Shown: one piece after another, positions 1,004 through 49,967 of the stretch
How the letters are laid out: the number at the start of each line of letters is the position of its first letter
Position numbering within the stretch: position 1 is the first letter of the stretch
Position numbers and translations under genes: made by a program
The notes under the pieces: model-generated
Databases searched by the model: none
What the model saw: only the letters and a program-made list of their open reading frames with translations
What the model was told of the DNA's origin: nothing
IMG/VR virus record: IMGVR_UViG_3300011242_000001
Coordinates: 1-50,438 of that record
Origin: a virus
Taxonomy: Duplodnaviria; Heunggongvirae; Uroviricota; Caudoviricetes
DNA: 50,438 nt
Strand: one strand, 5' to 3'

Positions 1004-1405
1004 ATGAATTTTAAAAATTACTTAAATGAAGCTGAATCAACCGCCAAGGTAAAATATAAACTAGTTAAAAATTCTGCTATTGGTAATATATTATTAGGCG
1101 AAACAGATATCGCTGAAAAAATTGTTGACGATATCCGTAGAGAAAGTAAAGGCGACGGTTTTGATATAGATGAAGGCGATATCTATTTCACTCATATTGA
1201 ACCATTGCAAAATGGCAACTTTAAAGTACACATTGTCGCCGTTATGCCGTATGATGACGGAAAAGCTGGTTTAGACAAATTTGAAGCCGTTATCGATAAG
1301 AACGCCAATGTTAGAAGCATTTCCGGTGATCAGGGCGATACAATGGATGCAAAAAAATGTAGAGAATTGGCAAATAGTCAAGGTATACGTCTTTTAGATA
1401 TTTAA
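1004..1405 (+). CDS. putative internal head (packaged) protein with CTS-like leader MNFKNYLNE
   Basis: N-terminal motif shared with ~16 other ORFs; late promoter upstream. Confidence 0.7.
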   Translation: MNFKNYLNEAESTAKVKYKLVKNSAIGNILLGETDIAEKIVDDIRRESKGDGFDIDEGDIYFTHIEPLQNGNFKVHIVAVMPYDDGKAGLDKFEAVIDKNANVRSISGDQGDTMDAKKCRELANSQGIRLLDI

Positions 1406-1430
1406 AAAAAGGACCATATGGTCCTTTTTT
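1404..1430. terminator. bidirectional intrinsic terminator (GGACC family)
   Basis: A7-GGACCA-TA-TGGTCC-T6 between convergent genes. Confidence 0.8.
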
Positions 1431-1743
1431 AATCCGGTTGAATATCATAAATTTTACCACCGCCATAATATGGCGAGTCCACAAGCACAGTCTCACTGTA
1501 TGAACTATATTGATCGTTATGACCAATGAAAGCAATCGCAATACTATCGTTACCATTATCAAAAACATAAACTCGATATTTTAAGCAGCTTTCTTCATGA
1601 TAGTAATAATCATCTTCTTGTGCGGTAATACCTTTAGCATCTAATAGAGCATCAGCAAATGATTCTTCACCGCGGAAAAAATCTTCTTGATAAGATTTGC
1701 TTTGTTCAAAGATTTCTTTAACTGCATCTAATAATGTATTCAT
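1429..1743 (-). CDS. conserved acidic phage protein, distant paralogue of 19789-20148 and 20145-20555
   Basis: ATG at 1743 after GGAG; shares Y..VY.F...F.G...Y.S pattern. Confidence 0.65.
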   Translation of the reverse strand: MNTLLDAVKEIFEQSKSYQEDFFRGEESFADALLDAKGITAQEDDYYYHEESCLKYRVYVFDNGNDSIAIAFIGHNDQYSSYSETVLVDSPYYGGGKIYDIQPD

Positions 1744-1780
1744 ATCGTTTACTCCATCGAGTTTGTTTGTTGATAGAATC

Positions 1781-1813
1781 ATTATATACCATATGATTAT
1801 ATTTGTATATACA
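1781..1813 (-). promoter_or_regulatory. early (sigma70-type) promoter
   Basis: reverse strand reads ATGTATATACA-N17-TATAAT-GATTCTAT; near-identical copies at 10660 and 12790. Confidence 0.75.
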
Positions 1814-1887
1814 TTTTAATAAATAAGTCAAATAATATTATTTCTAAATAGTTATAATAAATAAAATCTCAAAAAGGATAAATAGCT

Positions 1888-2247
1888 ATGAAATTTTCAC
1901 AATTTTTAAATGAGTCTGAAACAAAATATAAAGATCGTTATAAATTAGAAGATGCATTATATAAAAATAAAGCCAAACTTAAAAAAATTGAAGCTGCATT
2001 TGAAGAAAATTATAGTGATAATGAAGATAATTTTGACGAAGATAGTTTTGTATATAAAATTGTAAAGTCTTTAAAAGATGCAGGTGTAAATGAACTTGCT
2101 AATGCAATTCATACAATTAAAGATGTTGAATCCGTTGAACATTATATTTCAAATATAGATGATATTTCATCTGTTGCAAATAAATTACATTACCATCAAA
2201 ATTTAGATGATATAGCTAAAGCTATTTTAGATTATGTTGTTGGATAA
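1888..2247 (+). CDS. putative internal head protein with CTS-like leader MKFSQFLNE
   Basis: leader motif; AGGA RBS; TAAATA at 1858-1863. Confidence 0.7.
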   Translation: MKFSQFLNESETKYKDRYKLEDALYKNKAKLKKIEAAFEENYSDNEDNFDEDSFVYKIVKSLKDAGVNELANAIHTIKDVESVEHYISNIDDISSVANKLHYHQNLDDIAKAILDYVVG

Positions 2248-2365
2248 TAAAAAAATATAAAGTTATATTTGAGTATACTTTGCTAAGTGGAAGCAATTTC
2301 CAAAAGATAAAAAATTAGTAATATTAAAAGAATATGATTTAAAAGAATTAGGTATTATATAAAAG

Positions 2366-2392
2366 AAAAGCCACTCATATTGAGTGGCTTTT
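2366..2392. terminator. intrinsic terminator downstream of tRNA-Asn
   Basis: AAAAGCCACTCA-TAT-TGAGTGGCTTTT. Confidence 0.8.
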
Positions 2393-2398
2393 AGAATT

Positions 2399-2474
2399 TG
2401 GCTCCCCGGGCAGGGCTCGAACCTGCGACCAAGAGATTAACAGTCTCCTGCTCTACCAACTGAGCTACCGAGGA
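2399..2474 (-). tRNA. tRNA-Asn (GUU)
   Basis: TCCTCGG-TA-GCTC..GAGC-A-GGAGA-CTGTTAA-TCTCT..GCAGG-TTCGAGC-CCTGC-CCGGGGA-G-CCA; 76 nt, encoded CCA, U1-A72. Confidence 0.97.
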
Positions 2475-2475
2475 A

Positions 2476-3132: not shown

Positions 3133-3173
3133 ATTACATTATACATCAATTTTTATATAAGTAAACATATAAT

Positions 3174-13235: not shown

Positions 13236-13583
13236 ATGACATTTTTAGAATTTTTAAATGAAGCGACACAAAATATAAAGACTACTAATGCAGGCATCAA
13301 CCTACAGCTTGCAAATGAAGATGATAAAGATAAAGCAAAATTATCAAAATTTGTTGTAGCGTTGAAAAAGAATGGAATTGTATTAGGTGATTTAAAAGAT
13401 GATACGTTTAATAAAATCGAATTTGCCGCCAAGAAATTTGATTACGAAGCATTTATAAATAGTCTTAAAGGTGTGTATAACGATTTTGATCAAGAAGTTT
13501 CAGTTAATGGCAGTTTCATATATGACGATAAAAAATATAATATTGAAACAGAAGAAGAAATGATATACGTTGATGTTGTATAA
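13236..13583 (+). CDS. putative internal head protein with CTS-like leader MTFLEFLNE
   Basis: ATG 13236 gives the shared leader. Confidence 0.7.
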   Translation: MTFLEFLNEATQNIKTTNAGINLQLANEDDKDKAKLSKFVVALKKNGIVLGDLKDDTFNKIEFAAKKFDYEAFINSLKGVYNDFDQEVSVNGSFIYDDKKYNIETEEEMIYVDVV

Positions 13584-13624
13584 TTAAAAATGGGATCTTA
13601 ATAGATCCCTTAGTTTTTATATGA

Positions 13625-14327: not shown

Positions 14328-15272
14328 TTAAAGCATATGTTTAATTTTATCCCAAAGTTTTAGCTTAATTGCAACAGCATTGCCACTAAACCATAATTCC
14401 AGGTTGTCATTATTCGTCAATGTAGGTAATTCTTTTGTTGCTACTTCTTCAAATCCAAGCTCCGCAGGACTATACGCTTTTAATATAATAGATTCTACTT
14501 TATCTGAATCTAATCCAAATATTTTAACTGCCACGATACTGGCATTGTTTTTGTCATCATGCAAAAAGTCAGTAATTTCCTCGACTGAATATCCTGTATC
14601 AAATTCATATATATTATCAATATAATCTTTTATATCATCTTCTGTTGCATCATAATCTTTATCATTGCCATTTTCTTCATAATAGTCGTTTTCAACCGTA
14701 TCTTTAAAATCTTGAACAGCATCAGCAACTAAAATTTCTAACTTATTAACAAACGAACGATAATCTTCTTCTAAGCCCATAGCTTCAAAAATATCATTCC
14801 ATTCATTAATTTTGAAAGTATAACCATTGATAGTAACGTCTTTACGCCAAATATCATCTTCAGTAACACTACCTAATATAGTTTCTTTAAATGGCAAAAT
14901 TACATATGGTGTACCATAAAGACTAGCTGTCATTGTTGATGTTGTACATATAATAGATTCTGATCGTTTAGGGAAATTTTTATATGATGGTACTGTATCA
15001 AAAATATTATCTAAAATTACTGTATAATAATTTGTTGTATTTTTTGAACTACGCTTACCTTTTTTAGCATCGATAATAAAAAAATCGTTTGTATCATATT
15101 TTGCTGTTTCAAACCCACGATACAAATAATATTTCATACTACAATGCTTTTTAATTACGTCAAATGCAGTATGAATATCACAATCTTTCATATAACGTTC
15201 TAAATCTTTAAATGCAATATGTACTTCAGGGTCTTTTGCTGACTCTTTTAATAAAAATTGATGAAATTTCAT
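14328..15272 (-). CDS. putative packaged protein, ART-like paralogue family A (leader MKFHQFLLKE)
   Basis: LYRG, P.RS.SIICTTS...A..YG, DIW, ELWFSG; TATAAATA at 15296-15303 (- strand). Confidence 0.7.
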   Translation of the reverse strand: MKFHQFLLKESAKDPEVHIAFKDLERYMKDCDIHTAFDVIKKHCSMKYYLYRGFETAKYDTNDFFIIDAKKGKRSSKNTTNYYTVILDNIFDTVPSYKNFPKRSESIICTTSTMTASLYGTPYVILPFKETILGSVTEDDIWRKDVTINGYTFKINEWNDIFEAMGLEEDYRSFVNKLEILVADAVQDFKDTVENDYYEENGNDKDYDATEDDIKDYIDNIYEFDTGYSVEEITDFLHDDKNNASIVAVKIFGLDSDKVESIILKAYSPAELGFEEVATKELPTLTNNDNLELWFSGNAVAIKLKLWDKIKHML

Positions 15273-15341: not shown

Positions 15342-15752
15342 TTAAGAAGTGATTGTTAATGTATCTAATGAGATAAACAAATCTGCATTAAACTCGCCTG
15401 TATCATCATGATCTTTATTATTGGCATAATCATTGCCTTTCAATTTTAATGCAGCCATATCATCAGTATCTGGAACAATACCTTTTGAATCCGTTCCATC
15501 AGTTGGGACTAATTCAATGCCCGCTTCTTTTGCTTCTTCAATAACAAGAGCAGTCAATTTTGCAATACCAAGACTATTTACAAGTGCTTTGACTTTAGAT
15601 AGATCAACAATTAGTTGATTACCGCTTTTACCAGTTACGTCAATTTCACCTTTAATTGCAGGACCAAAAACGCCAATGATAATTGCTTCAAAGTTCTTTG
15701 CACCTAAGCGTTTATTGCCTTTAGCTTCGTTTAAAAAATCTGAAAATGCCAT
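15342..15752 (-). CDS. putative internal head protein with CTS-like leader MAFSDFLNE
   Basis: ATG 15752 after AGGA gives the shared leader. Confidence 0.7.
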   Translation of the reverse strand: MAFSDFLNEAKGNKRLGAKNFEAIIIGVFGPAIKGEIDVTGKSGNQLIVDLSKVKALVNSLGIAKLTALVIEEAKEAGIELVPTDGTDSKGIVPDTDDMAALKLKGNDYANNKDHDDTGEFNADLFISLDTLTITS

Positions 15753-17184: not shown

Positions 17185-19094
<1,910 letters not shown>

Positions 19095-19218: not shown

Positions 19219-19716
19219 TTATTCAGTTTCATTTAATATAAAAGTTAATGTTGCAATGCCGTCTTCAACGGTGCTACGTAATACGCGCTTAACTTTTAAT
19301 TTTTGTTCTTCAATAATAGAAGTAACTTCTTCTTTAATATCTTTTGCTAATTCATTTTTATCATCGCGATAATTTGCCGGTGCTTCTTTACCATAATTAT
19401 AATGTACTACCACTACAGAATTTTTATCTTCATTAATAAATTCTATCGCCCGAATTGAAATTTTCATTTCACGACAAGCATCAACAATATAGCCTTCAAT
19501 TTTATGTTGTAGTTCTTTATCTAAAGATTCTTTAATCGCATTTGCGTCATATACTTCATTGTCAGTTTTAGTTTTTTCAACTTCTTTTTTAGCAGGTACT
19601 TCTTTATCTTTTTTCTTTTCTACGTCATTCTCTTCAGATTCTGTTTCTTTAGTTTCTACGTCTTTTTTAACCAGGTCTTCTTTTTTAATTTCATTTAAAA
19701 AGTCTGTAAATTTCAT
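19219..19716 (-). CDS. putative internal head protein with CTS-like leader MKFTDFLNE
   Basis: leader motif, then a K/E-rich low-complexity segment. Confidence 0.7.
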   Translation of the reverse strand: MKFTDFLNEIKKEDLVKKDVETKETESEENDVEKKKDKEVPAKKEVEKTKTDNEVYDANAIKESLDKELQHKIEGYIVDACREMKISIRAIEFINEDKNSVVVVHYNYGKEAPANYRDDKNELAKDIKEEVTSIIEEQKLKVKRVLRSTVEDGIATLTFILNETE

Positions 19717-20667: not shown

Positions 20668-21414
20668 GTGAAATTTGCAGAATTTTTAAATGAAAATGAA
20701 TCATCATATAAAGAGATAATTAATTATAATGATGCAGTTGAATTAATCAAAACACATTGTAAAAATATGGATTTTGAGCGACCTTATTGGAGAGGCAATC
20801 GCGATAATTCATATGCTTATAAAGTAGATGGATCAAAAGGTCATCGCCAATCTTCAGATACCCAAAATTATTATACAATGCTAATAGATAAATTTGCCGT
20901 AGCGGGACAACCACTGCGATCTAAATCTATAATTTGTATTAATTATCCAGGAAAATCATATGCTTCTAGATATGCTGATTCTCGTATGGGATCATATTAT
21001 GCAGTATTTCCATATGATAATGCCAAAATAGGATTTGTCGGTAAACAAGATATATGGGATATTAATGTTACTATAAATGACACCAAATTTTCTATTGAAA
21101 AATGGAATAACTATTTTTCATTTTCTAATATTAAAGATACATCATATGAAGATTTTATGGACACTATTAAAAATATATTTTCAAAAGATACATATAAGCT
21201 TGAATTACATGAAAAGAAATTATTTGATGTATTCGAAGGTGATTTTAAAAACGTCGAACCCTTTTTAAAAGATGCTTATAGTGCAGAATCATTAAAATTT
21301 AAATTAGGAACAAGCGCCGATATAGATAATACACACTTATCTGAAGTATGGATCGGAGGCCCATGTATTTTAATAAGAAATGATATATGGCGCGACTTAG
21401 TAATAAATAAGTAA
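20668..21414 (+). CDS. putative packaged protein, ART-like family A (leader MKFAEFLNE, GTG start)
   Basis: PYWRG, PLRSKSIIC, YAVFP, DIW, EVWIGG. Confidence 0.75.
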   Translation: MKFAEFLNENESSYKEIINYNDAVELIKTHCKNMDFERPYWRGNRDNSYAYKVDGSKGHRQSSDTQNYYTMLIDKFAVAGQPLRSKSIICINYPGKSYASRYADSRMGSYYAVFPYDNAKIGFVGKQDIWDINVTINDTKFSIEKWNNYFSFSNIKDTSYEDFMDTIKNIFSKDTYKLELHEKKLFDVFEGDFKNVEPFLKDAYSAESLKFKLGTSADIDNTHLSEVWIGGPCILIRNDIWRDLVINK

Positions 21415-21438: not shown

Positions 21439-22170
21439 ATGAATTTTAATACTTTTATATTAAATGAATCGCTTAAAAAAGATAAGATTGATATAGATGA
21501 ACTACATAATATTTTAACAACTAAATGCGGTGATTTTGATATTAAAAAACCGTTTTGGCGTGGTACAAAGGATAGAGGCAATAGTATATATATTGCTGAT
21601 GGATCTATAACTGAACGTAAATCTGCAAATACATCCAATCATTATACTGTAATAATTGATGAAGCTTTACGATTGGATGATAGTAATCATCCATTAAGAA
21701 GTAAATCTATTATATGCGCTAATTACCATAATAAAGCTCATGCTGAAAATTATGGTAAATTATTTGCAGTTATTCCATTTAATGAAGCAAAAATTGGAGT
21801 TACTAGCAGTGATGATATATGGGATACAGACGTTATAATTAATGATTATGAATTAATGTTGCCAATATTTAATAGACTATTAAGAGACTGTAATATTTCA
21901 GACAAATCATTTAATGATATTGTTAATGGTATTACTGATGGTATTAATAAAAATACAAAAGATATGGACTTTATGCGATTAAAAAGGGTATTTAAAGATA
22001 TTAATATTAAAGATGAATTATTAAATGCATTTAGCCCATCTAAATTAGACTTTAAATTTGGTAATGGTAAAAGCGTTAGTAAATTAACAAACGCGCATGA
22101 ACTCTGGATTTCTGGTAAATGCGCATTTATTGAATATAATATATGGTCAGATTTTATTAAGCAATACTAA
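21439..22170 (+). CDS. putative packaged protein, ART-like family A (leader MNFNTFILNE)
   Basis: PFWRG, PLRSKSIIC, DIW, HELWISG. Confidence 0.75.
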   Translation: MNFNTFILNESLKKDKIDIDELHNILTTKCGDFDIKKPFWRGTKDRGNSIYIADGSITERKSANTSNHYTVIIDEALRLDDSNHPLRSKSIICANYHNKAHAENYGKLFAVIPFNEAKIGVTSSDDIWDTDVIINDYELMLPIFNRLLRDCNISDKSFNDIVNGITDGINKNTKDMDFMRLKRVFKDINIKDELLNAFSPSKLDFKFGNGKSVSKLTNAHELWISGKCAFIEYNIWSDFIKQY

Positions 22171-23355: not shown

Positions 23356-24243
23356 ATGAGTTTCGCCAATTATTTACATGAAAATTTTGCAGAAATTACA
23401 ACTGAAGTTATTACCGAATCATATAATACAGAAGATTATTATGATTTAGAAGACTTATTTGAATCAGTTAAAACTTTTAAAGATGTACCTAATTCATTGA
23501 AAAAAGCATTGGTCAAAGCCGCTAAAAAAGCTGGTGAAAATTCTGCTGTTAAAGATTTAAAAATTCAATCTGAAGGTAAAATTACTACTAAAGGCGCTTT
23601 AACTACTGCACTTAAAAATACATTTGCTGATCATGCTGATGATCTATCTGGCTTTGTTATTGAAGCTAATGGCTTGGCTGTCGTTGCTGTAATTAAAACA
23701 AGTATGTATAAATTTAATCTTCATGTGGATGGCAGTAATGAAGCAACTCATAAAGATTTAAATGCGACTCAAGCAATTGCTGAAATTAAAACATTATTAG
23801 ATTCTTTAGAAGGTGGCTTATCCGCTGCATTTAAAGGTAAAGGTATTGAAGTTAAAGCTGTTTATTTTGATACTGTACGTGATGGCATTGCGGATGATCG
23901 TGCTGAAAATAAATACCCAGTTCGTTTGAAAAAACATGCTGGTTCTGAATTGACTACTGAAGAACGTAAAAACCTTATTACTAAATTTGCTAAAAAACAT
24001 TTAATTGCTAATGTTGAAAAATTATCTAAAGAATTACCTACCTTAGGTGATACGGATAACTTATTAAAAGCATCACTAGACCGTGAAGGTTTTGAACATA
24101 AACAAATTGAATCAATTAATAAATTGCTGCGCGATGTATCAGATGTATTAGATGCATACCGTTGGGCTATTTCTGATCAACGTATTCGTAACTTTAATGG
24201 TGAAATTAGTACATATCTTAAAAAGATGAAAAAAGATAATTAA
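23356..24243 (+). CDS. putative packaged protein, paralogue family B (leader MSFANYLHE)
   Basis: LFES.KTF.D.PN..KK, AGENS, GFVIEANGLAV shared with 28342-29331. Confidence 0.75.
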   Translation: MSFANYLHENFAEITTEVITESYNTEDYYDLEDLFESVKTFKDVPNSLKKALVKAAKKAGENSAVKDLKIQSEGKITTKGALTTALKNTFADHADDLSGFVIEANGLAVVAVIKTSMYKFNLHVDGSNEATHKDLNATQAIAEIKTLLDSLEGGLSAAFKGKGIEVKAVYFDTVRDGIADDRAENKYPVRLKKHAGSELTTEERKNLITKFAKKHLIANVEKLSKELPTLGDTDNLLKASLDREGFEHKQIESINKLLRDVSDVLDAYRWAISDQRIRNFNGEISTYLKKMKKDN

Positions 24244-24294: not shown

Positions 24295-24981
24295 ATGAAA
24301 TTTGAATTATTTTTAATAGAAAGTGAAAGCCATAGAATTTCTATTGATGAAGATGAATTTAAAAGCTTATTTGATATACATTGTAAAAATATGGATATAA
24401 ATAAGCCATATTGGCGTGGTATGGGATATCATGGCGAATATCTGCAATTAGAACCTAGAAAGCGATTAACTACACGCGATTCTATTACCGGATCAAATAC
24501 TCAAAATATTTTAACTGATTATTTTTTAAGTAAAGAAATTAAAAATTATCCAAAACGAAGTGAATCTATTATTTGTGGTAATAATAGCAATAAAAATACT
24601 GCCAATATGTATGGAGATGCACTTTATAAAATTTATCCATTTGATAGTACAATTATTGCTTCCTGCGAAGAACATGATTTTATTTTCACTGAGATGCATT
24701 TAAATGGTAAAACAATCGACGCAGATGATTATTTTGCTATATTAGAATTAGCTAACATAAAAGGTAAATCATATATTGATATTTTAAAATCAATGAAAGA
24801 ATGCGATGAAGAAGATTTTATTAAAGTATTTGGACCATCCAAAGATATTGAATCCGTTTTAAAGGATGCTTATACAGCTAAAAATATGCAAATAAATGTT
24901 GGTACATCAAAAGATGTAAACAAAGAAAGCGGTATGCATGAATTATGGTTTAATGGGCCATGTTTGGCGGTAATTAATTAA
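24295..24981 (+). CDS. putative packaged protein, ART-like family A (leader MKFELFLIE)
   Basis: PYWRG, YPKRSESIIC, A..YG, HELWFNG. Confidence 0.75.
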   Translation: MKFELFLIESESHRISIDEDEFKSLFDIHCKNMDINKPYWRGMGYHGEYLQLEPRKRLTTRDSITGSNTQNILTDYFLSKEIKNYPKRSESIICGNNSNKNTANMYGDALYKIYPFDSTIIASCEEHDFIFTEMHLNGKTIDADDYFAILELANIKGKSYIDILKSMKECDEEDFIKVFGPSKDIESVLKDAYTAKNMQINVGTSKDVNKESGMHELWFNGPCLAVIN

Positions 24982-27358: not shown

Positions 27359-28315
27359 ATGAAATTTACAGATTATTTGGTTGAAAATAGATCAGTTGAA
27401 TTATATGAATCGACTACATATAATAGCTTGTTGGAAGCAGTACAGAATATTGCGAAGATGCCGCCGACATGGGTAGTTGGTTTTACAAAGGGTGAACCTG
27501 GTAAAGGAGAATTTTCAAAAACAATAGTGAATGAAACTGTTACTATTAATAATAAAGTTGCTTTTGATCGAGTAATTAAAGATTCTCTTAAAGACAATAA
27601 AGTACACGGCTTTTTGATTTGTCATAAAGAAGTACCATTATTTGCATTGGTAAAAGACAAAAAAGATAATTCATCATCTACTTTATTTGTAATTGGGCCG
27701 ACTCAAGCTCGACAGATTAAACAATCAACTTGGACAATATATACGGCACATGACGCTAAATTTTATGAAGTACATAACACATTTGATGAAAAAGAAATTA
27801 CTAATACAAATTCAATAGTGGCGCTTGGAAAATTATTAACTACATTTGTATCTAATTATGTCAAAGGATCAAATGATGATATGCAATTAAATGACGCTTT
27901 GCGTGAATTATCTATTAATATTAAAACAGTAGTTGTGGAAACTGATAATCAAAGCGATCGATCTGGTGGATCTGGTACAGGTCGAAATTCAGATGATCGA
28001 TCAGTTCATGCTAATAAAGCAATCAAAAAATTTAGTGACGACTATTTAAGTAAATTTATTGCAGACTATCATAAGCTCGTAGATAAAGAAGTTCCAAATT
28101 TAGATAAAGCCGAAGAATTGATTCAAAAATCTATTGATGGAACACTTCAACAAATTAATATTAATAAAGTCACTGCTGAATTAAAAGAATATAATAAATT
28201 GATTAGCAAATTCAGTCATGAATATAAAACTAAAAAAGCAACTAATCCAACGGATCCAAACTGGGAAGAGGAGTTTGTAAAAGACTTTATTGACTCATTA
28301 ACAGCTACAGCATAA
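27359..28315 (+). CDS. putative packaged protein, family B (leader MKFTDYLVE)
   Basis: LLEAVQNIAKMPPTW, GFLICHK, AIKKF, VPNLDK align with family B. Confidence 0.72.
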   Translation: MKFTDYLVENRSVELYESTTYNSLLEAVQNIAKMPPTWVVGFTKGEPGKGEFSKTIVNETVTINNKVAFDRVIKDSLKDNKVHGFLICHKEVPLFALVKDKKDNSSSTLFVIGPTQARQIKQSTWTIYTAHDAKFYEVHNTFDEKEITNTNSIVALGKLLTTFVSNYVKGSNDDMQLNDALRELSINIKTVVVETDNQSDRSGGSGTGRNSDDRSVHANKAIKKFSDDYLSKFIADYHKLVDKEVPNLDKAEELIQKSIDGTLQQININKVTAELKEYNKLISKFSHEYKTKKATNPTDPNWEEEFVKDFIDSLTATA

Positions 28316-28341: not shown

Positions 28342-29331
28342 TTAATCTTGTTCTTTATGTTTTTTGATCGCTTTTGTAAGATATTTCATATCCCAATCAA
28401 GTTCTGTTTTCCAATCAGACTTAATTTTACCATTTTTATATGCTTGCTTAAACGCATATAAAATGCTATTCAATGAATCAACTTTTTCTTTAAGGCCTTT
28501 TACATCGATATTAACATCTTCACCTTCAGCAGCTTTCATTAGGATATCTTCTAATTCATCAATTTTTGGTAATGAATTTTTAATATCAGTTACAAGTTCT
28601 TCAATATTATTTTTTGTGAATTTTTTAATTACAGCACGACGGTTAGTAACAAGAGAATCTTTAAGACCAAAATTTCGTTCATTACGATCATTACTACGTT
28701 CAACATTTTTTTCAATACGTTTACGATCGCGTTTAACTACTTTAACAGTAATATCTAAAGTTGAAATTACATCATCAATTGTCATCGTTTTTACAAATTT
28801 TGATTCATCTTCAATATTTGAATTGGTTTTGTCAATTGCCAATTCAGTAAGTGTTTGTGTAATTTGATCAAATGTTTCTTGTACTTTAAGATCACCAGAA
28901 TGCCATTTTCTCAAACCACCAGAACGATGAAGTGTTCCACGATCCCATTGTGTACGTAGAATTTTTTTCAAGTTACCGTCATTTGATAGTAGATTGAATT
29001 TTTTTTCATAGTTATTGATTAAAGCCAATACAGCCAAACCATCAACTTCAATAATGATACCAGCATTATCAGTAGTATCTTTTAAACTTTCTTTGAATAA
29101 CTTATTATATGCAGTTTTATTTTTAAGAATACCAGTTGACTTAATTTCAATTTCTGAATTTTCGCCAGCAATTTTATCCCAACGAGCAAATACTTTTTTC
29201 CAAGCATTTGGAAGATCGGCAAAAGATTTAATCGATTCTTCTAAAAATTCAACTTCTGCTACTTGTGTAGTTGAATCAAATAATTCATCCAAATTCATAG
29301 TCGCTTCGTTAAGATGATCTAAAAAGCTCAT
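28342..29331 (-). CDS. putative packaged protein, family B (leader MSFLDHLNE)
   Basis: LEESIKSFADLPNAWKK, AGENS, GIIIEVDGLAV. Confidence 0.75.
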   Translation of the reverse strand: MSFLDHLNEATMNLDELFDSTTQVAEVEFLEESIKSFADLPNAWKKVFARWDKIAGENSEIEIKSTGILKNKTAYNKLFKESLKDTTDNAGIIIEVDGLAVLALINNYEKKFNLLSNDGNLKKILRTQWDRGTLHRSGGLRKWHSGDLKVQETFDQITQTLTELAIDKTNSNIEDESKFVKTMTIDDVISTLDITVKVVKRDRKRIEKNVERSNDRNERNFGLKDSLVTNRRAVIKKFTKNNIEELVTDIKNSLPKIDELEDILMKAAEGEDVNIDVKGLKEKVDSLNSILYAFKQAYKNGKIKSDWKTELDWDMKYLTKAIKKHKEQD

Positions 29332-32029: not shown

Positions 32030-32398
32030 TTATTTTAAAATATTACCTTTTAATTTATTTTTAATATATAAATCACAATCAGCAATAGTAGTAAAGCTAT
32101 CTTTAATATCGTCAATTAAAATGTCTGTTTCATTTTTAGAAACTCGATGAATATATTTACCAATATAAAAATCATCGCCTTGATCAGCATCTTTTTTATA
32201 AATAAAGAAACCTAAAATTTCTTTTGTTTCGACTACTTCATCAGTTTTTTTATAATCAATAACATAAATATCGCCATCAGTATAAATATCAGAATTTTTA
32301 GCTTGATCTGCAATATTTTTTTCTACAGTATTAATGAAACCGCCAACTGTATTGTCATTTTCTTCAGAATTCTCATTTAAAAAATCAGCAAATTTCAT
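32030..32398 (-). CDS. putative internal head protein with CTS-like leader MKFADFLNE
   Basis: leader motif; AAGGA RBS. Confidence 0.7.
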   Translation of the reverse strand: MKFADFLNENSEENDNTVGGFINTVEKNIADQAKNSDIYTDGDIYVIDYKKTDEVVETKEILGFFIYKKDADQGDDFYIGKYIHRVSKNETDILIDDIKDSFTTIADCDLYIKNKLKGNILK

Positions 32399-37774: not shown

Positions 37775-38083
37775 ATGAAAGTCTTATCACATAATGGCCA
37801 TCAAAATTTTAGTGGCATTCGCAAAACAGTTCATGAATCATATTTTAAAATTGAATTCACAACCGGCGAAATTATAAAATGTACAGAGAATCATTTATTT
37901 GAAACTTTGAACGGGCCTATTACCGCTCAAATTTTAACCAAAAATGATGAACTAATACATTCAGAAAATAAAACGACTTTTATTAAATCAAAACGCCGAA
38001 TTAAAAATAAATTTGAAGCTTATGATTTAGTTGATGTTGATCATGGATCTTTATATTATACAAATAATATTTTAAGTCATAAC
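37775..38083 (+). mobile_element. atypically split intein C fragment (103 aa)
   Basis: IKCTENHLF (block B TxxH), YDLVDV...LYYTNNILSHN|C (blocks F/G); no N-terminal block A. Confidence 0.9.
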
Positions 38084-40648: not shown

Positions 40649-40681
40649 TAAAATAAAAATAATAAACAAGGAGAAATAAAC

Positions 40682-41248
40682 ATGGCAGCTAATGTCAATT
40701 CATTCCTGGCGAACTTCACGGGCGGTGGCGCCCGTGCTAACCGCTATGAAGTAATGATCGGTTTTCCAAACTTTTTAAACGTACGTGATACTGCTATTTT
40801 GCAAAAAATTAGCTTTACATGTAAAGCATCAAGTGTACCGGCATCAGAACTAGGCGAAGCAGTTGTACCATATAAAGGTCGTCAAATTAAAGTCCCTGGT
40901 GACCGTACTTTTGGTGACTGGACTGTAACCATTATCGTAGACAATGACTTTAAAGGTCGTGACGTATTCGAAACATGGTCTGCTGGTATGCTGGGTAACT
41001 CAAGCAACGTAACTAAATCTGCAAATGAATTAAACCCATTACAGATTTATGGTCAAGCTCAAGTAAACTTACTTGATCGTTATGATCAAGTTATCAAGCG
41101 TTACCAAATTACTGGTATGTTCCCTAAATCAGTTGGTGAAATCACTATTGGTTACGACCAAAATGACCAAGTAATGGAACAACAAGTAACATTTGCAATC
41201 AACGAATGGTCTGCGTATAGCAAAGACGGCGCGTTAATTACAAACTAA
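40682..41248 (+). CDS. 19: tail tube protein gp19
   Basis: GGGARANRYEV, GR.IK..GDRTF.DWT.T. Confidence 0.93.
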   Translation: MAANVNSFLANFTGGGARANRYEVMIGFPNFLNVRDTAILQKISFTCKASSVPASELGEAVVPYKGRQIKVPGDRTFGDWTVTIIVDNDFKGRDVFETWSAGMLGNSSNVTKSANELNPLQIYGQAQVNLLDRYDQVIKRYQITGMFPKSVGEITIGYDQNDQVMEQQVTFAINEWSAYSKDGALITN

Positions 41249-41340
41249 TTTTTTTAAAGTAAAAAGAGGATCTTCTGGTCCTCTTTTTTTATTCTTTATT
41301 TTTTACATAAATATATAGTATATAAAAAGGTGAAGTATAA

Positions 41341-42960: not shown

Positions 42961-43009
42961 ATATAATTATAAATATTCTATATAAATATAAAATAAAAGG
43001 ATAATTATA

Positions 43010-44200
43010 ATGACAGATTTTAATAAAAAATTGTCAAAATTATTAAATGAAAATGTTACGCACATGATTTTCATGGATGAGCCATTAACGGCTGAAATTG
43101 ATGAATCTGTAATTGTAGGTGAAATTTCTGCGGCAGGTCCATTATATGGATTAAAGTATCTTGGTTATGAAGAGGGTGTATTATCATTCTCTACATATCA
43201 AAAGACGTCTATTGAAAAGTTCGCGATGTTTTTAGATGATAATGACTTTGTTGAAAATTATGCAATTTCAGTTATTGAATCTAATCCAATGACAAAAGTT
43301 GCTAATGTTGTAGATGAAATTGATTTTGATTCTACACGCGAATCTGAATTTGTGGAATTCTTTATCGATGTTGTTATTAGTTGGAATTATGTCAACTTTA
43401 ACAGCGTTTATGTAGACCCACAAAATCCATTCGCCGCAAATCAATCCACATCTTTTCAAATTCCGATGGATACAAGCGATCCATATGCAGCTCATGTCCC
43501 ATTAGATAAAGAACCAGCAGAATTTTATGATAATAATGATTTTGAATATCCAGATGCGGATGCAAAAATTGCTATTGTCCCTGGATTCGATACACTTCAA
43601 GCGGATGAAACTCCATTACTTGTAAAATTATCTGCTATTAAATCAAATTCATTAGTTGGATCCGTATTAGTTACAGTACATCCAAAAAATGATGATGAGA
43701 TTTTAGTTCAAGCTACTTATAAAGAAGAACCGGTTACGGACGATGTTTTAAACGACTTATCAGTCATTAATACATTAGATCAGCTTTATCCGACTAAGCT
43801 TGAGCTAGTTAAAGAAGCATTTTATCAATTAGGTGACTTATTTACTAGTTCGGCTGTATATAAATCAATAAATGGTAAGAATGTTTTAAATATAGTAGAA
43901 GTATTTGCAAATAGTGCAGATGAAGTTATATGTGATACCAATTTATTGAACGAGTTACGTCGTGAAATTAAAGTAAATTTCCGCGGCAAGAAACGTATAA
44001 AAATGCAATGCCAACCTGGATTCAAATATGACCCAGAACGTATGGCATGTGTAAAAATTTCTGGTGCAGAATTGGCCGTATCACGAATCGCTCATCGTCA
44101 AATGGCACGTACTAAGAGAGCGCTAGGCGGAAGCTATAGAACAAGAATTTTAAGAAAAGTTCGCCGCGCTAAACATTTTAGAAAAATCATGGGGCTATAA
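43010..44200 (+). CDS. prohead core protein, gp68-like C-terminus with long acidic N-terminal region
   Basis: basic C-terminus R.AHRQMARTKRA...RK.RRA...RK.MGL; between portal and protease. Confidence 0.7.
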   Translation: MTDFNKKLSKLLNENVTHMIFMDEPLTAEIDESVIVGEISAAGPLYGLKYLGYEEGVLSFSTYQKTSIEKFAMFLDDNDFVENYAISVIESNPMTKVANVVDEIDFDSTRESEFVEFFIDVVISWNYVNFNSVYVDPQNPFAANQSTSFQIPMDTSDPYAAHVPLDKEPAEFYDNNDFEYPDADAKIAIVPGFDTLQADETPLLVKLSAIKSNSLVGSVLVTVHPKNDDEILVQATYKEEPVTDDVLNDLSVINTLDQLYPTKLELVKEAFYQLGDLFTSSAVYKSINGKNVLNIVEVFANSADEVICDTNLLNELRREIKVNFRGKKRIKMQCQPGFKYDPERMACVKISGAELAVSRIAHRQMARTKRALGGSYRTRILRKVRRAKHFRKIMGL

Positions 44201-44202
44201 AA

Positions 44203-44904
44203 GTGATTAAAGACGGAACCGCACTCTTAATTGAGCGTAACTTAGAATTGACTGAAAGCAATATTATCACCGGCGATAATGCTACTAATGATAAGAAATA
44301 TATTATCAAAGGTATTTTCATGCAGTCAGATTTAAAAAATCGTAATGGTCGTATCTATCCAGAAAAATATATGGATCGCGAAGCGACTCGATATATACAA
44401 GAAAAAGTTTTAACACATCAAGCTACTGGTGAATTAAATCATCCAACTGGTGATGGCAGTTTATCAGTGAATTATGAACGCGTATCTCATAAAATTACCA
44501 GTCTAACTAAATGCGGTAAAAACTGGATGGGTGAAGCATTGATTACACATAAAACTCCAATGGGCTCTGTAATTGCAGGCCTTATGGAAGCTGGCGTTGT
44601 AATGGGCGTATCTTCACGCGCAACAGGTTCATTGAAATTAGATGGACATGGCGTAAAGATTGTTCAAGAAGATTTTAGATTAATTACTCCTGCTGATATT
44701 GTATCTGATCCATCTGCACCTGACGCATTTATGACTTCTATTATGGAAGGTCATGAGTGGTTATATGTGAATGGCGCATTAACAGAACAAGCAATTAGTG
44801 AAGTAAAAACCGTGCTAAATAAAGAAGCAAAGACGATTGTAAAAAATGAAGAACAATTAATCAATGTTTTTAGCTGGATTTTAACTCATAAAGTGGGTAA
44901 ATAA
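44203..44904 (+). CDS. 21: prohead protease gp21
   Basis: I.GIFMQ....NRNGRIYP, GELNHP, GVSSR..GS, D.V.DPSAPDA. Confidence 0.95.
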   Translation: MIKDGTALLIERNLELTESNIITGDNATNDKKYIIKGIFMQSDLKNRNGRIYPEKYMDREATRYIQEKVLTHQATGELNHPTGDGSLSVNYERVSHKITSLTKCGKNWMGEALITHKTPMGSVIAGLMEAGVVMGVSSRATGSLKLDGHGVKIVQEDFRLITPADIVSDPSAPDAFMTSIMEGHEWLYVNGALTEQAISEVKTVLNKEAKTIVKNEEQLINVFSWILTHKVGK

Positions 44905-44956
44905 TTTTTTTTTATAAATCGCTTAAATAAATAAAAAATATTGGAGAAATATTTAA

Positions 44957-46240
44957 ATGAACGAATTTAAGAAATTAATGGGCGATGCTATTTCAGACGA
45001 AACAGCTACAGCTCTTCAGACAATCTTAGATACACACCTTAATGAATCTGAAGCAAAAGCAAAGCAAGAAGCTGAAAAAATTCAATCTGAATTAAATGCT
45101 CTTACTGAACAACATGCTGATCTACAAGAATCAGTAACTAATTTGACTAAAGACAAAGCAGACTTAGAAGCTGACAAAGCCGATCTTGCTGAATCTGTTA
45201 AATTAGCTGAAGAAAAAGTTGCTGAACTTACTTCTAATATTGATACGCTTAAAGAAAAAGCAGAAGAATATGCTGAGCAAGTTAAACAAGAAGCTCTTGA
45301 AGAAGCTGTTGCAGAACACCAACAAGAAATCGCTACTCTTAAAGAACATGCTGAAGCTTATGCTGAAAAAGTTAAAGAAGAAGCTGTTGCCGAATTAACT
45401 GAAGCACAAGAAACCGAAATTTCATTCCTTAAAGAACAAGCTGATTTATTTGCTGAAAAAGTTAAAGCTGAAACTACTGCTGAACTTACTGAAAAGGCAG
45501 ATGCTTATGGTGTTTATCTTCAAGAAAAAGCTGAAGAGTATGCTGAAAAAGTACGTCAAGAAACTATCGTTGAAATGACTGAAAAAGCAGACGCTTATGG
45601 CGATTATCTTCAAGAAAAAGCTGAACAGTATGGTGTTTATCTTCAAGAAAAAGCTGAAGAATATGGCGAATTCTTAATTGCCGAAGCAGAAAAGTATACA
45701 GCTGAACAAGTAGCTCTTACTGAAGCAAAATGTTTAGCTGAAGCTGAAAAGCAAATTAATGAATTCAAAGACGAACACAAAGATCAATTTGAGCGTTTAG
45801 ATGAACATAACCGTATGGCTATGGTATTTAAAAATCTTAAATCGTTAATCGAATCTTCTGGCTTCTCTATCGAAGAGTCTGAAACTCTTGATACTTTAGA
45901 AGAAGAACTGCGCCAAGCTCGTGCTGCAAATCGCCGCCTTGAACGTACTTTACGTGAAAGCTCGCAAGAACTTAAACAGCTTAAAGTAAAAGAACTAGTT
46001 GAATCAATGGCTGAAGATTTAACCTTCACTGATAAAGAACGTATTGTGAAAGCCGCTTTACGCACTCGCAGTGAAACCAATGAAGATCTTTCAGAAGTTG
46101 TTAAAACTTTAGTTGAAAATACTACGCTAAATAATAATAGCAATAAAGCAAATACAACAACTGTTAGTACATTGACCGAAGAAACTGCAAATACTGCATC
46201 CACTAAAGTTAAGTCTGGCTGGGCTGAATTCTTGAAATAA
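44957..46240 (+). CDS. 22: prohead scaffold/core protein gp22-like
   Basis: long E/A/K coiled coil with many L-x-E sites; between genes 21 and 23. Confidence 0.85.
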   Translation: MNEFKKLMGDAISDETATALQTILDTHLNESEAKAKQEAEKIQSELNALTEQHADLQESVTNLTKDKADLEADKADLAESVKLAEEKVAELTSNIDTLKEKAEEYAEQVKQEALEEAVAEHQQEIATLKEHAEAYAEKVKEEAVAELTEAQETEISFLKEQADLFAEKVKAETTAELTEKADAYGVYLQEKAEEYAEKVRQETIVEMTEKADAYGDYLQEKAEQYGVYLQEKAEEYGEFLIAEAEKYTAEQVALTEAKCLAEAEKQINEFKDEHKDQFERLDEHNRMAMVFKNLKSLIESSGFSIEESETLDTLEEELRQARAANRRLERTLRESSQELKQLKVKELVESMAEDLTFTDKERIVKAALRTRSETNEDLSEVVKTLVENTTLNNNSNKANTTTVSTLTEETANTASTKVKSGWAEFLK

Positions 46241-46311
46241 GAATTCAATCTAAAATAACAATTTTTTAAACGTTTTTATTAAATAAGAATAAACAATAAG
46301 GAAACAAGAAA

Positions 46312-47544
46312 ATGAGTCAACAACTTCTTACAGAAAAATGGGATGACGTTTTAACTGACAACCGCTTTGCCCCAGTTCAAGACGACACTCGCGCTAAGAT
46401 CACTGCACAACTTTTGGAAAACCAAGAGCAGAATCTTTCAGAATCTACTAACGAAACTGGTAATGCTGCGCAGTGGAATCCAATTTTGATTAGCATGGTA
46501 CGTCGTATCGCTCCACGTCTAATCGCTTATGATTTAGTTGGTGTTCAACCGTTAACTCTTCCTACAGGCCTAATCTTCTGTATGAAAGCACGTTATGCTG
46601 CTGATACTGCAAAAGCTCAAAACGATCTTACTAACAAAGAAGCAATGGGTTGGGACGAAGTTGATGCTGGTTACTCTGGTGACAAAACTCCAAATGCTGT
46701 AGTTGCTAATAGCTTTGCTGGTGGTGTTGCGTATGCTCGCGGTAAAGGTATGACTACTCAAGCTGGTGAACAATCTAACGCTTGGAACGCTATGGGCGTA
46801 ACAATCGAAAAAACCAACGTTAATACTGAAACTCGTCAATTACGTGCTGACTACTCGCAAGAGATCGCAGAAGATATGAAACGTGTTCACGGTATGAATG
46901 CAGATTCAGAACTAGTGAATATCATCTCGAATGAAATCACTGCTGAAATTAACCGTGAAATGCTTGACAAATTGTATGTATCAGCTAAAACTGGTGCTCA
47001 ATGGACAGCTACTCCAGGTACTATCGATCTAACTGCTGATGTTGGTGGTCGTTGGTCTGCAGAACGTTTCCGTGGTCTTCAGTTCGCTATCGAACGTGAT
47101 GCTAACCGTATTGCAATCGAATCTCGTCGTGGTAAAGGTAACAAACTTATCGTTTCTGCTGATGTAGCTTCTGCTCTTGCATTTGCTGGTATCATGTCAT
47201 TCGCTCCTGCGATTGCTGCTCAAACTAACTTGAATGTAGATCCATCTGGTGCTACTTTCGTTGGTACACTTGGTACCTATAGCGTTTATGTTGACCCATA
47301 CGCTCAAGGTGATGGTTACTTAGTTGGTTATAAAGGTCAAGACGTTACTGACTCTGGTATCTTCTACTGCCCGTACTTACCGCTTGCTCTTAGCCGTGCA
47401 ATCAACCCAGTTAACTTCCAAATGGCTCTTGGCTTCAAGACTCGTTATGGTTGGGCTGTTAACCCGTTCGTTAGTGCTACAAATACTTTCGTTCCTGGTG
47501 CGAACCCTTACTACCGCGCTGCTCAAATCAGCGAATTGTTCTAA
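46312..47544 (+). CDS. 23: major capsid protein gp23
   Basis: L.EKW..VL, LLENQE, GVQP...PTGLIF, EI.AEINRE, YCPY.PL, GFKTRYG. Confidence 0.97.
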   Translation: MSQQLLTEKWDDVLTDNRFAPVQDDTRAKITAQLLENQEQNLSESTNETGNAAQWNPILISMVRRIAPRLIAYDLVGVQPLTLPTGLIFCMKARYAADTAKAQNDLTNKEAMGWDEVDAGYSGDKTPNAVVANSFAGGVAYARGKGMTTQAGEQSNAWNAMGVTIEKTNVNTETRQLRADYSQEIAEDMKRVHGMNADSELVNIISNEITAEINREMLDKLYVSAKTGAQWTATPGTIDLTADVGGRWSAERFRGLQFAIERDANRIAIESRRGKGNKLIVSADVASALAFAGIMSFAPAIAAQTNLNVDPSGATFVGTLGTYSVYVDPYAQGDGYLVGYKGQDVTDSGIFYCPYLPLALSRAINPVNFQMALGFKTRYGWAVNPFVSATNTFVPGANPYYRAAQISELF

Positions 47545-47565
47545 GCTTAGGTTTAGATACAAAAC

Positions 47566-47592
47566 AAAAGAAGACTTCGGTCTTCTTTTTTT
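47566..47592. terminator. terminator with UUCG tetraloop after gene 23
   Basis: AAAAGAAGAC-TTCG-GTCTTCTTTT. Confidence 0.88.
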
Positions 47593-47597
47593 ATTCA

Positions 47598-48068
47598 CTA
47601 AATTTGATATAATTCATTAATAACAATTTTATAATAATTTATCTTAGCATATATATTATCAAGCATATCAATTTTTTCTTGCGTAAGAAATTTAATAGAT
47701 CGCTGAAATTTTAATAGCTCTACTGAATTAAAAAATATATAAGATCGTGGTGTAATATAATCATCAATATATTCTTTAGTAACCATGCCCGTTTCAATAT
47801 TAATATACAATATGGTTTTAGATTTTAAATTTGACCCTAATAATTCAATTGTAATATATGTATCAGTAGATAAATTATCTAATATTGTATTTGTTTTAAC
47901 ACAATATTCAATTTGTGGTAATGGTTTACCGTCATTAATAATATCAATAATACGATCAATATTACTATCATATAAAGTCCATTTAGCGGGATCATAGCGA
48001 GGCAATAATTGTTTAAAATATTGTCGGGCTTGAGGTATCGTTTTAATAATAGGATCAAACTTAAACAT
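47598..48068 (-). CDS. hypothetical protein
   Basis: 156-aa ORF. Confidence 0.6.
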   Translation of the reverse strand: MFKFDPIIKTIPQARQYFKQLLPRYDPAKWTLYDSNIDRIIDIINDGKPLPQIEYCVKTNTILDNLSTDTYITIELLGSNLKSKTILYINIETGMVTKEYIDDYITPRSYIFFNSVELLKFQRSIKFLTQEKIDMLDNIYAKINYYKIVINELYQI

Positions 48069-48169
48069 ATGGTATATCTGTGCAGTATAAAAAAATATTT
48101 TACTGCATATACAGATATAAAGAAATACATTTTTATGATAAAATATAAAAATTATTTGGAGTATATTTT

Positions 48170-48634
48170 ATGAAAGAAATTAATATCTATTGCGATGGTG
48201 CATGTAAAGGTAATGGCAAAGTAGATGCCATTGGTGGTTGGGGATCACATTCATTTGATATTGATATGTCAATTTATGGCGGTGAAATAGGTACTACTAA
48301 TAATAGAATGGAATTACTTGCAGCCATTCGTACATTACAATGGATTTTAAAGAATCGATCTATTGATAAAAAAAATCCTAGCGCTAATAATGAATTATAT
48401 AAAATCCATACAGATTCTAATTATGTAAAAGAAGGCATTACTAAGTGGATTATCAAATGGAAAATGAAAAATTATATGGGTGTAAAAAACCCCGATTTAT
48501 GGCAACTTTTAGATAAGTTAAATACTCATATGTCTAAATCAGTCCAATGGCATTGGGTACGTGGGCATGATGTATCAGAGGGTAATATTGAAGCGGATAG
48601 ATTAGCTAATTTAGGTTGTGAAAGTATTAAATAA
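48170..48634 (+). CDS. rnhA: ribonuclease HI (bacterial RnhA type)
   Basis: IYCDGAC.GN, GGWG, TTNNRMEL.A, TDS.YV, KN.DLW, WVRGH, GN..AD.LA. Confidence 0.95.
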   Translation: MKEINIYCDGACKGNGKVDAIGGWGSHSFDIDMSIYGGEIGTTNNRMELLAAIRTLQWILKNRSIDKKNPSANNELYKIHTDSNYVKEGITKWIIKWKMKNYMGVKNPDLWQLLDKLNTHMSKSVQWHWVRGHDVSEGNIEADRLANLGCESIK

Positions 48635-48673
48635 TATATAAATACAAATATACTTTTTATAAGGAAAAATAAA

Positions 48674-49141
48674 ATGAGCTTTAATACTTTTATTGAAACT
48701 GCAAAACCAGTTGTTGAAGAAACCCCTTTAGTAGAATCGGTTGGTGAAATTGTTGGTAAAGAATATAAATTTGCTAAAAAAGATGCAACTCTTAAATTCT
48801 TCAACAAATTCGTATTTTTATTTCATGACATTAATGATGATATTCAATATAAATTAAAAAATGCCACTGAAGTTAATACACCTAAATTTAAGGCTCAACA
48901 TATTTTGTATACAACTTATGGTATTACAGAAGATGGTAATGTAATTATTAAAGGTCGCGCTGTATTACCAGTTGGTGAAATTTTTAAAACAGCTGATTTT
49001 GAATATATTACTTCACCTCGTGACTTTCATAAAATTGAAACCGTTTATACTGCCGAAAAAGAATTTGACACTGCCGAAGCCGCATTTAAATCAATTTCAA
49101 AGGGCGCTGTTGCTTATTTTGACTGGGCAAAATTTGTTTAA
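48674..49141 (+). CDS. putative internal head protein (leader MSFNTFIE...LVE)
   Basis: leader variant; TATAAATA at 48637-48644. Confidence 0.7.
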   Translation: MSFNTFIETAKPVVEETPLVESVGEIVGKEYKFAKKDATLKFFNKFVFLFHDINDDIQYKLKNATEVNTPKFKAQHILYTTYGITEDGNVIIKGRAVLPVGEIFKTADFEYITSPRDFHKIETVYTAEKEFDTAEAAFKSISKGAVAYFDWAKFV

Positions 49142-49156
49142 TTAGGAAAAACAAAA

Positions 49157-49648
49157 ATGAAGTTTGAAGAATTTTTAATCGAAGCTAAAAAAGGCAAAAA
49201 GATTAAACCTAAGCATAAAGATGGTAAAGGTTTAGATCGCGTAATTACACAAATTCAAGCCCGTATCGATGCATTACATGATAATTGGGAGCAAGAAGAA
49301 TTTGATAAAGAAATTCAACCTAAGTTGGATAAATTTGGCGACCTTAATAAACTTGATCCGCGCGATGCTGTAAAACTGTTCTTTGCTATTACACGTTGTT
49401 ATTTTATTGCCAAATATCCAACATCTACAGATGCGCTTGTTGGCACTGTTAAAGTAATTAAAGATAGTAATGTTGATAAAATGCTTCGTCAATTGGCGAA
49501 AGACGTTGCTGAATATGCTCAAAAGAAATTTCCTGGCAATAAAGACCTTGACGAACTATTAACTGATTTTGAATATGGTTATATCGATGATATTAATACA
49601 GAAGCATTAATTGAATTGATTGAACAAATTATTGGCTTTATTGGATAA
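49157..49648 (+). CDS. putative internal head protein (leader MKFEEFLIE)
   Basis: leader motif; AGGA RBS. Confidence 0.7.
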   Translation: MKFEEFLIEAKKGKKIKPKHKDGKGLDRVITQIQARIDALHDNWEQEEFDKEIQPKLDKFGDLNKLDPRDAVKLFFAITRCYFIAKYPTSTDALVGTVKVIKDSNVDKMLRQLAKDVAEYAQKKFPGNKDLDELLTDFEYGYIDDINTEALIELIEQIIGFIG

Positions 49649-49658
49649 GGACGATAAA

Positions 49659-49967
49659 ATGAACTTTAATCAATTTTTAGAAGAAGGTTTAGCAACCGCC
49701 CACGGTAAAGTGGAAATGGCCATTCGTGAGCTTAATTTAAAATATACAATTGAAAATACGGATAAAGCTAAAATTTTTCATATTGAAGATTTTATATTAA
49801 CATCAAGCAATAGTGGTGAAGTTACACTGAATAAAAAAGGTGTACGTGGAACAATCGCGACTTTTAAAGAATTTAACTTTAATAAAATTCGTGAACGTGT
49901 TGTTGAACTTTTGAAAAAACATGTTGTTGAAGCAAAAGAAGATAAGAAAGAAGCGGATGCAGCGTAA
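49659..49967 (+). CDS. putative internal head protein (leader MNFNQFLEE)
   Basis: ATG 49659 after AAGGA gives the shared leader. Confidence 0.7.
   Translation: MNFNQFLEEGLATAHGKVEMAIRELNLKYTIENTDKAKIFHIEDFILTSSNSGEVTLNKKGVRGTIATFKEFNFNKIRERVVELLKKHVVEAKEDKKEADAA

Follow-up and report, generated by a model that had tools for sequence, protein, structure and literature searches.

We analysed a 50,438-nucleotide stretch of DNA (the window), bases 1-50,438 of the complete, 380,997-bp virus record IMGVR_UViG_3300011242_000001 (G000; terminal repeats, 30% GC), and in particular a short N-terminal leader of the form M-x-F-x-x-F/Y/H-L/I-x-E, which is carried by genes throughout this genome. G000 is an uncultured T4-like jumbo phage of about 381 kb, in which our own gene calling gave 531 genes (88% coding), 70 inside the window and 461 outside. 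The head gene block (portal, prohead protease, scaffold and Gp23 capsid protein) spans 41341-47544; the nearest cultured capsid proteins, those of the Stenotrophomonas phages Smp14 and Moby, are only 55% identical. As a hint to the host, the best matches of a flotillin gene (about 59-60%) are from Psychrobacter and a gammaproteobacterial metagenome-assembled genome. A sequence-only reading of the window had listed 16 leader-bearing genes, with a looser variant in the core protein at 43010, and had taken the leader for a capsid-targeting signal like that of the T4 internal proteins. All 16 are true starts of open reading frames (ORFs) with the quoted N-termini, one of them (20668) starting with GTG, and 43010 carries a looser variant as described.

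When the called starts of all genes were searched with the pattern M.F..[FYH][LIV].{0,2}E, 47 of the 531 matched, 40 of them in the exact nine-residue register. Shuffling residues 2-15 of each protein 2000 times gave a mean of 0.17 matches and a maximum of 3, confirming the enrichment that had been proposed as a check, and none of 1815 internal methionines, used as a control, matched the motif. Because the motif had been written from the window only, the 461 genes outside it, with 31 matches, constitute a hold-out. In the 40 exact-register leaders, F3 is invariant (40/40) and F/Y/H6, L/I7 and E9 are the other conserved positions. The residue after the glutamate (P1') lay outside the search pattern and was free to vary; in 33 of the 40 leaders it is one of A, S, N and G, which holds for 23% of 1136 internal sites (P = 4e-15). 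A slightly looser pattern gave 50 tagged genes, which occupy 28 kb (7.4% of the genome); the portal gene (41341), 91110, 35253 and 52744 were left out of this set as loose matches. The expectation of a set far above that of T4 was thus exceeded, with about 50 tagged genes instead of the roughly 17 first noticed.

The window genes had been called unrelated, which needs correction, as 15272, 20668, 21439 and 24295 are paralogous, as are 23356, 27359 and 29331, and the 16 genes form 11 families. BLASTP without the leader sorted the 50 tagged genes into 38 families (one of 11 members, one of 3, and 36 singletons), and the leader is therefore common to non-homologous cargo. In the family of three, F3 and L7 are invariant and are followed by a variable acidic linker and by a second, invariant L-x-E at the edge of the conserved domain, a layout that resembles what a removable propeptide would look like.

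The motif TAAATA, which we take to be the core of the T4 late promoter, precedes 13 of the 16 window genes at a distance of 8-60 nt, in agreement with the earlier statement that most of them have it. Genome-wide, it was found at this distance in 45/50 tagged and 84/481 other genes, and in 38/39 and 68/271, respectively, when only genes with a 30-nt upstream gap were considered. Compared with the other genes, tagged genes are more often oriented opposite to both neighbours (17/50 vs 18/481), more often have a terminator-like hairpin (33/50 vs 123/481) and never encode a membrane helix (0/50 vs 40/481). They look like stand-alone late units, dispersed genome-wide and outside the head operon. The leader is not found on other late structural genes, and 84 genes with TAAATA have no motif. 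The claim that no early-promoter gene carries the leader is weakly supported: of 32 genes with an extended -10 element, one (378619, outside the window) is tagged (P = 0.35). Two tagged genes, 1888 and 13236, adjoin tRNA-Asn and tRNA-Met (window 2399-2474 and 12894-12970), as T4 ipI lies by a tRNA cluster.

Table 1. Tagged genes and head genes of the window (the slash marks the predicted cleavage site)
Feature	Coordinates	Strand	Leader	Remarks
Tagged gene	1004..1405	+	MNFKNYLNE/A	133 aa, no family
Tagged gene	1888..2247	+	MKFSQFLNE/S	119 aa, no family
Tagged gene	13236..13583	+	MTFLEFLNE/A	115 aa; two-way terminator-like hairpin downstream, 13592-13609
Tagged gene	14328..15272	-	MKFHQFLLKE/S	11-paralog family, predicted ART-like fold (phrog_12810)
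Tagged gene	15342..15752	-	MAFSDFLNE/A	136 aa, no family
Tagged gene	19219..19716	-	MKFTDFLNE/I	165 aa; N-terminal part charged, low-complexity
Tagged gene	20668..21414	+		ART-like paralog starting with GTG; Atu_ph07 and RsoM2USA have homologs
Tagged gene	21439..22170	+	MNFNTFILNE/S	ART-like paralog chosen for the structure model (R41, S90, E221)
Tagged gene	23356..24243	+	MSFANYLHE/N	3-paralog family; longer propeptide-like region ending L-x-E/S
Tagged gene	24295..24981	+	MKFELFLIE/S	ART-like paralog, without its own TAAATA
Tagged gene	27359..28315	+	MKFTDYLVE/N	3-paralog family
Tagged gene	28342..29331	-	MSFLDHLNE/A	3-paralog family; L30-x-E32 is an invariant second site, at the conserved-domain edge
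Tagged gene	32030..32398	-	MKFADFLNE/N	122 aa, no family
Tagged gene	48674..49141	+	MSFNTFIE/T (short variant)	Second site LVE/S; first of three consecutive tagged genes
Tagged gene	49157..49648	+	MKFEEFLIE/A	Co-transcription with 48674 likely
Tagged gene	49659..49967	+	MNFNQFLEE/G	G001 ortholog tagged too
Head core protein	43010..44200	+	Longer variant ending LLNE/N	C-terminus matches phrog_3503 head scaffolding protein
gp21-type prohead protease (Peptidase_S77)	44203..44904	+		40% identity to T4 gp21 over 146 aa; predicted leader cutter
gp22-like scaffold	44957..46240	+		13 [LIV]-x-E-[ASNG] sites in 427 aa
Major capsid protein (Gp23)	46312..47544	+		Propeptide predicted to be cut near residue 44 (LSE/S)

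The prohead protease of G000 retains GELNHP, GVSSR and D-x-V motifs, which presumably have catalytic roles. The scaffold is rich in [LIV]-x-E-[ASNG] sites, with a density of 0.030 per residue against 0.004 in the proteome (about 7-fold), and its 13 sites suggest that the protease would be specific for L/I-x-E. The portal (window 41341-42960) has a leader-like start, MGIFDGFLTE/K; to our knowledge, the T4 portal is not trimmed in this way. A second, longer class of leader (for example MSDLRKFINILNE/S and MHKFIKLLNE/S) was seen at 43010 in the window, at 270340 in G000 and in gp33, gp206 and gp594 of the cultured Agrobacterium phage Atu_ph07, in which 4/5 matches to this class are virion-detected. 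Elsewhere in the window, genes that we take to be GroEL- and GroES-like (17185-19094; N-termini at 18789 and 19094) include a TAAATA motif at the GroES-like one, and an ORF with an intein- or homing-endonuclease-like N-terminus (37775-38863) lies ahead of the tail sheath gene and is conserved in the relative G001 (65% identity).

In T-even phages, a capsid-targeting sequence (CTS) that is cut by gp21 is carried by IPI, IPII, IPIII, Ip4 and others (Mullaney and Black 1996, as reviewed in PMC9026906 and PMC3012670; here and below, papers are cited for the passages available). Ten residues of the T4 leader are enough for packaging, with targeting mapped to residues 4 and 7 and processing to 8 and 10, and gp21 cleaves after L/I-X-E (PMC9026906). 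In the T4 record, ipII and ipIII start MKTYQEFIAE, and the G000 leader has this spacing minus one residue (F3, F/Y/H6, L/I7 and E9 versus Y/F4, F7, I8 and E10). Like the T-even CTS, it is a short N-terminal leader on otherwise non-homologous proteins, with two aromatic residues three apart and then L/I-x-E, in a phage that has a gp21-type protease and one Ip4-homologous cargo. This cargo, gene 83380, is 34% identical to T2 Ip4 over 162 columns (E 4e-28) and is the only one of the 50 that matches a named T-even internal protein. Unlike the T-even CTS, the G000 leader has 9 residues instead of 10, and it is on 47/531 genes against 3/257 in T4 with one pattern, which T4 IPI and Alt escape; across all T-evens, at least 10 internal proteins (Ips) are described (PMC12373910). 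The tagged genes of T4 are at two loci, unlike the dispersed genes of G000, and 0/3 have the late-promoter motif upstream by the identical test. T4 gp61.1 (NC_000866 18966-19130, minus strand), annotated as hypothetical, starts MKTFKEFIKE, with the same leader in T2 at 17997-18026, and judging from this start it may be an overlooked internal protein.

Pfam named 4 of the 50 cargoes: DUF7412 (Ip4-like), LPD11, ART-PolyVal and a zeta-toxin-like kinase. In addition, 293070 and 352037 have weak ParB-like matches, and 19716, 189192 and 292581 are charged and of low complexity. NCBIfam on 40 of the 50 cargoes gave nothing above cut-off, and PADLOC, whose models are of defence and not anti-defence systems, gave only one weak VakA match when 44 of the 50 and three looser candidates (47 proteins) were run. 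Among known anti-defence proteins, none was matched by the cargoes apart from the Ip4 homolog, and the literature passages available gave no function for Ip4. PDB sequence searches with a profile of the 11 paralogs and with 97201 gave nothing, and an Atlas search with 29331 gave nothing usable. The tagged gene at 97201-97848 of G000 shows kinase-like motifs by eye and has homologs (41-43%) in the phages XacN1, Xoo-sp13 and Alishewanella phages; that of XacN1 starts MKQVRLSQFLSE/A.

The largest family comprises 11 paralogs of 230-310 aa, with 39 credible homologs among the 40 listed, mostly with a similar leader start. The structure model of 21439 (pLDDT 92, with a low-confidence helix at residues 3-10) retrieved in a wide structural search BC2332, Arr and other domains of ADP-ribosyltransferases (ARTs) or PARPs as top rows, with Z from 6.7 to 4.3, and among viral structure models it matched many uncharacterised phage proteins, Atu_ph07 first. 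In an alignment of 44 sequences, R41 and E221 are invariant and S90 is present in at least 90%; these residues are on or beside strands 39-43, 91-94 and 221-225, a placement read from the strands of the model itself. We take R, S and E on three active-site strands to be the motif of ARTs. Because of the structural ranking and of the invariant R41 and E221 on strands, the predicted fold makes it likely that the 11 paralogs are ART-superfamily enzymes. T4 Alt is a head-packaged, injected ADP-ribosyltransferase, and the paralogs likewise have a predicted ART-superfamily fold on a protein predicted to be packaged and trimmed. Unlike Alt, there are eleven of them, without sequence match to solved structures or Pfam, with a leader of the IP type instead of Alt's MELITE and with a predicted activity.

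Virion lists of cultured relatives provide presence data for homologs. The 11-paralog profile matched 10 ORFs of Atu_ph07, and 10/10 are in the published virion list (PMC6102473 Table S5), which shows presence only, neither place in the particle nor cleavage. Mass and order served to match all 140 rows of this list with ORFs; the GenBank coordinates bear the assignment out for gp53-64, and some small proteins are possibly mismapped. The Atu_ph07 form of the leader is shorter (M-R/K-W/L/Y-x-x-L-x-E), and a pattern for both forms, which was composed after viewing the mapped list and is hence partly circular, marked 28 genes, 21 of which are virion-detected against 119/661 others (P = 3e-10). Among genes with TAAATA, 11/11 tagged ones are detected vs 46/82, and without the paralog family 9/16 tagged genes are detected (P = 8e-4). 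In phage RsoM2USA, the tagged ORF89 is one of the ten named virion bands (PMC8504454). The zeta-like kinase cargo starts LSE/SINDKG in G000 and LLE/GIEDRG in RsoM2USA, and the corresponding inner domain of Atu_ph07 gp53 reads VTE/GVNDKH, so that L/V-x-E plus a small residue occupies the same place at a leader in two phages and at an internal junction in the third. The 87-kDa gp53 peaks in the gel band of proteins of about 20 kDa, which would fit cutting into domains. Both gp53 (39484-41820) and gp483 (350504-351388) are polyproteins whose domain junctions repeat L-x-E-L-F-D as at the start of T4 Alt (MELITELFD), and both run far under their own mass in the published gel (PMC6102473).

With one long-spacing pattern, we found 47/531 tagged genes in G000, 9/446 in RsoM2USA, 3/257 in T4, 1/689 in Atu_ph07 and 0/259 in Moby (nulls 0.2-1.1). 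XacN1 (bases 1-320,000 of 384,670) has 3 such tags against a null of 0.3 (maximum 3), and exact-register matches number 11 and 7 in two further complete records of uncultured jumbo phages. A narrow DNA pattern matched 43 viral contigs, with 44/44 matches directly after an in-frame stop. The tag is widespread yet not universal, with the highest count in G000 among the genomes examined. In fragments of two relatives (G001 and G002), the leader, strict or variant, is retained in 7/7 homologs of tagged genes. We considered a faster turnover of tagged genes and rejected it, as tagged genes without a G000 homolog show no excess there (5/8 vs 106/204 untagged), and codon choice gave no clear support for a recently copied DNA cassette. 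In another genome, G003, about ten genes of about 200 aa at 286,000-298,300 carry the leader or variants and are unrelated to the G000 cargo, and a relative contig whose capsid protein is 79% identical has two tagged genes without a G000 homolog directly after the capsid gene (L097:13134-13753).

G000 thus has the leader, its T4-like spacing, late-promoter and terminator-like signals, the protease and a motif-rich scaffold. We propose that the leader would dock late-made proteins on the prohead core, that gp21 of the phage would remove it by cleavage after the glutamate, and that many of the freed mature proteins would leave with the DNA into the host, as in T4, to act there, the 11 paralogs presumably by ADP-ribosylation. 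The capsid-targeting interpretation of the earlier reading is well supported, if indirectly, by the spacing, the P1' bias, the intact gp21, the late units, the Ip4 homolog and the virion homologs of Atu_ph07. We regard packaging and trimming by themselves as very probable, and the full T4-type scheme on an unusually large cargo set, with docking, trimming and injection as effectors, as fairly probable. Injection, and anti-defence or host-takeover roles, would follow the example of T4 and the cargo domains only; Ip1-3 of T4 each block a different GmrSD (PMC12373910).

Several results, besides the partial circularity mentioned above, weigh against this scheme. The cargo is mostly acidic, unlike that of T4 (38/50 negative and 11/50 positive in net charge; T4 IpII is +5 and IpIII +10), so that the basic character described for T4 IPs, a property apart from the signal itself, is not seen, and 46/50 cargoes are below every Pfam cut-off. 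For the ART-like model, Foldseek against PDB gave a best E of 0.035 and none at E<=0.001, and the best structural match is modest (Z 6.7, rmsd 3.4, 131 aligned). Moby, the closest cultured relative by capsid protein, has no tagged gene by the long-spacing pattern. In Atu_ph07, the strict G000 pattern finds one gene, which is not virion-detected, a wider pattern with the paralogs excluded gives 10/30 detected (P = 0.053), and the particles were only PEG-purified (PMC6102473). The RsoM2USA virion bands ORF86 and ORF257 are untagged under the patterns used, and three hypothetical bands are unplaced (PMC8504454). In PA5oct (93 virion proteins, PMC7318152), a replicate fixed in advance, there was no clear tag excess with three patterns (2 vs a null of 1.4; 2 vs 0.3; 10 vs 4.1, shuffle maximum 9); its virion list was mapped by mass with 14/93 placed only, so that it gives tag counts and no virion enrichment figure. 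The virion data are those of relatives.

The leader might also load the prohead and be cut, with most of the cargo serving as core or filler protein for head assembly, undergoing degradation or remaining in the head instead of being injected as effectors. In T4, IPIII also has an effect on head assembly, and the core proteins end up as fragments after cutting (PMC9026906); several charged low-complexity cargoes, the variant leader on the core protein 43010 and the 38 acidic cargoes also fit such a role. We nevertheless consider it unlikely, since filler poorly fits the enzyme-type cargo (ART-PolyVal, the zeta-like kinase and the 11 paralogs with invariant R41 and E221) and the Ip4 homolog, and the tagged genes are dispersed stand-alone units outside the head operon. 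Still less probable is an amphipathic helix that addresses late proteins elsewhere, without head packaging, to a phage chaperonin, to another virion site or to protease-triggered activation in the cytoplasm. The low-confidence helix at residues 3-10 of the model, the virion lists, which are silent on place, and the presumed GroEL/GroES-like genes would allow it, but the spacing fits the mapped targeting and processing positions of T4, the Ip4 homolog carries the leader and other late structural genes lack it.

An origin at the nucleotide level, by which A/T-rich and unstructured starts of translation on late mRNAs would produce the motif incidentally and not as a protein signal, is hardly credible. 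The leader codons are indeed mostly TTT, TTA, AAT and GAA in a 30% GC genome, and L7 is TTA in 28/35 cases against 58% genome-wide. However, codon choice for F, N, E and K tracks genome usage, G003 (a 44% GC region) writes the same peptide with TTC and CTG, the 84 TAAATA genes mentioned lack the motif, composition-keeping shuffles give 0.17 matches, and the P1' bias is a protein-level feature; this explanation is already largely refuted.

The T4-type capsid-targeting scheme invites comparison with two other kinds of phage protein. Phage polyvalent proteins, which are likely injected (PMC9503650), share with G000 the LPD11 and ART-PolyVal domains and the proposed co-injection with DNA (PMC9503650, PMC7824862). 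In G000, by contrast, each domain is encoded by a small gene of its own that carries a leader, and Atu_ph07 gp53, a fusion with protease-type junctions, is intermediate. The ejection proteins of SPN3US (phiKZ-like) resemble the predicted G000 set in their number in the head, in N-terminal propeptides whose last residue is glutamate, and in paralog expansions; in contrast, the SPN3US propeptides are mostly >100 residues with no common short tag, and the head genes of G000 are T4-type (PMC5694885). For T-even phages, the signal and the finding of ip genes by it have been published (PMC9026906, PMC12373910), and head-packaged ARTs have been proposed (PMC9503650). In a literature search that had most subscription journals outside its scope, the passages available contained no description of so large a tagged set or of the tag in Atu_ph07. 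What is notable here is the scale, the ART-like expansion and the testability on existing proteomics.

More tentatively, and with some doubt on our part, the payload of about 50 injected proteins could amount to a polyvalent protein split into pieces, with eleven diverged ARTs and dozens of uncharacterised proteins each directed at a different host target, and the leader might allow the effector set of uncultured T4-like jumbo phages to be read from their genomes. By the leader rule, about 20 virion proteins of Atu_ph07 that have no assignment acquire a likely role, so that the rule can be tested at present; the leaders are also natural variants of a tag already used for loading foreign proteins into T4 heads. 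As each of the three internal proteins of T4 inhibits a different restriction enzyme (PMC12373910), proteins bearing the tag would be rich ground for first-strike anti-defence and host-takeover factors, and the approximately 50 tagged genes of G000, 46 of them without a Pfam family, are a ready list of candidates.

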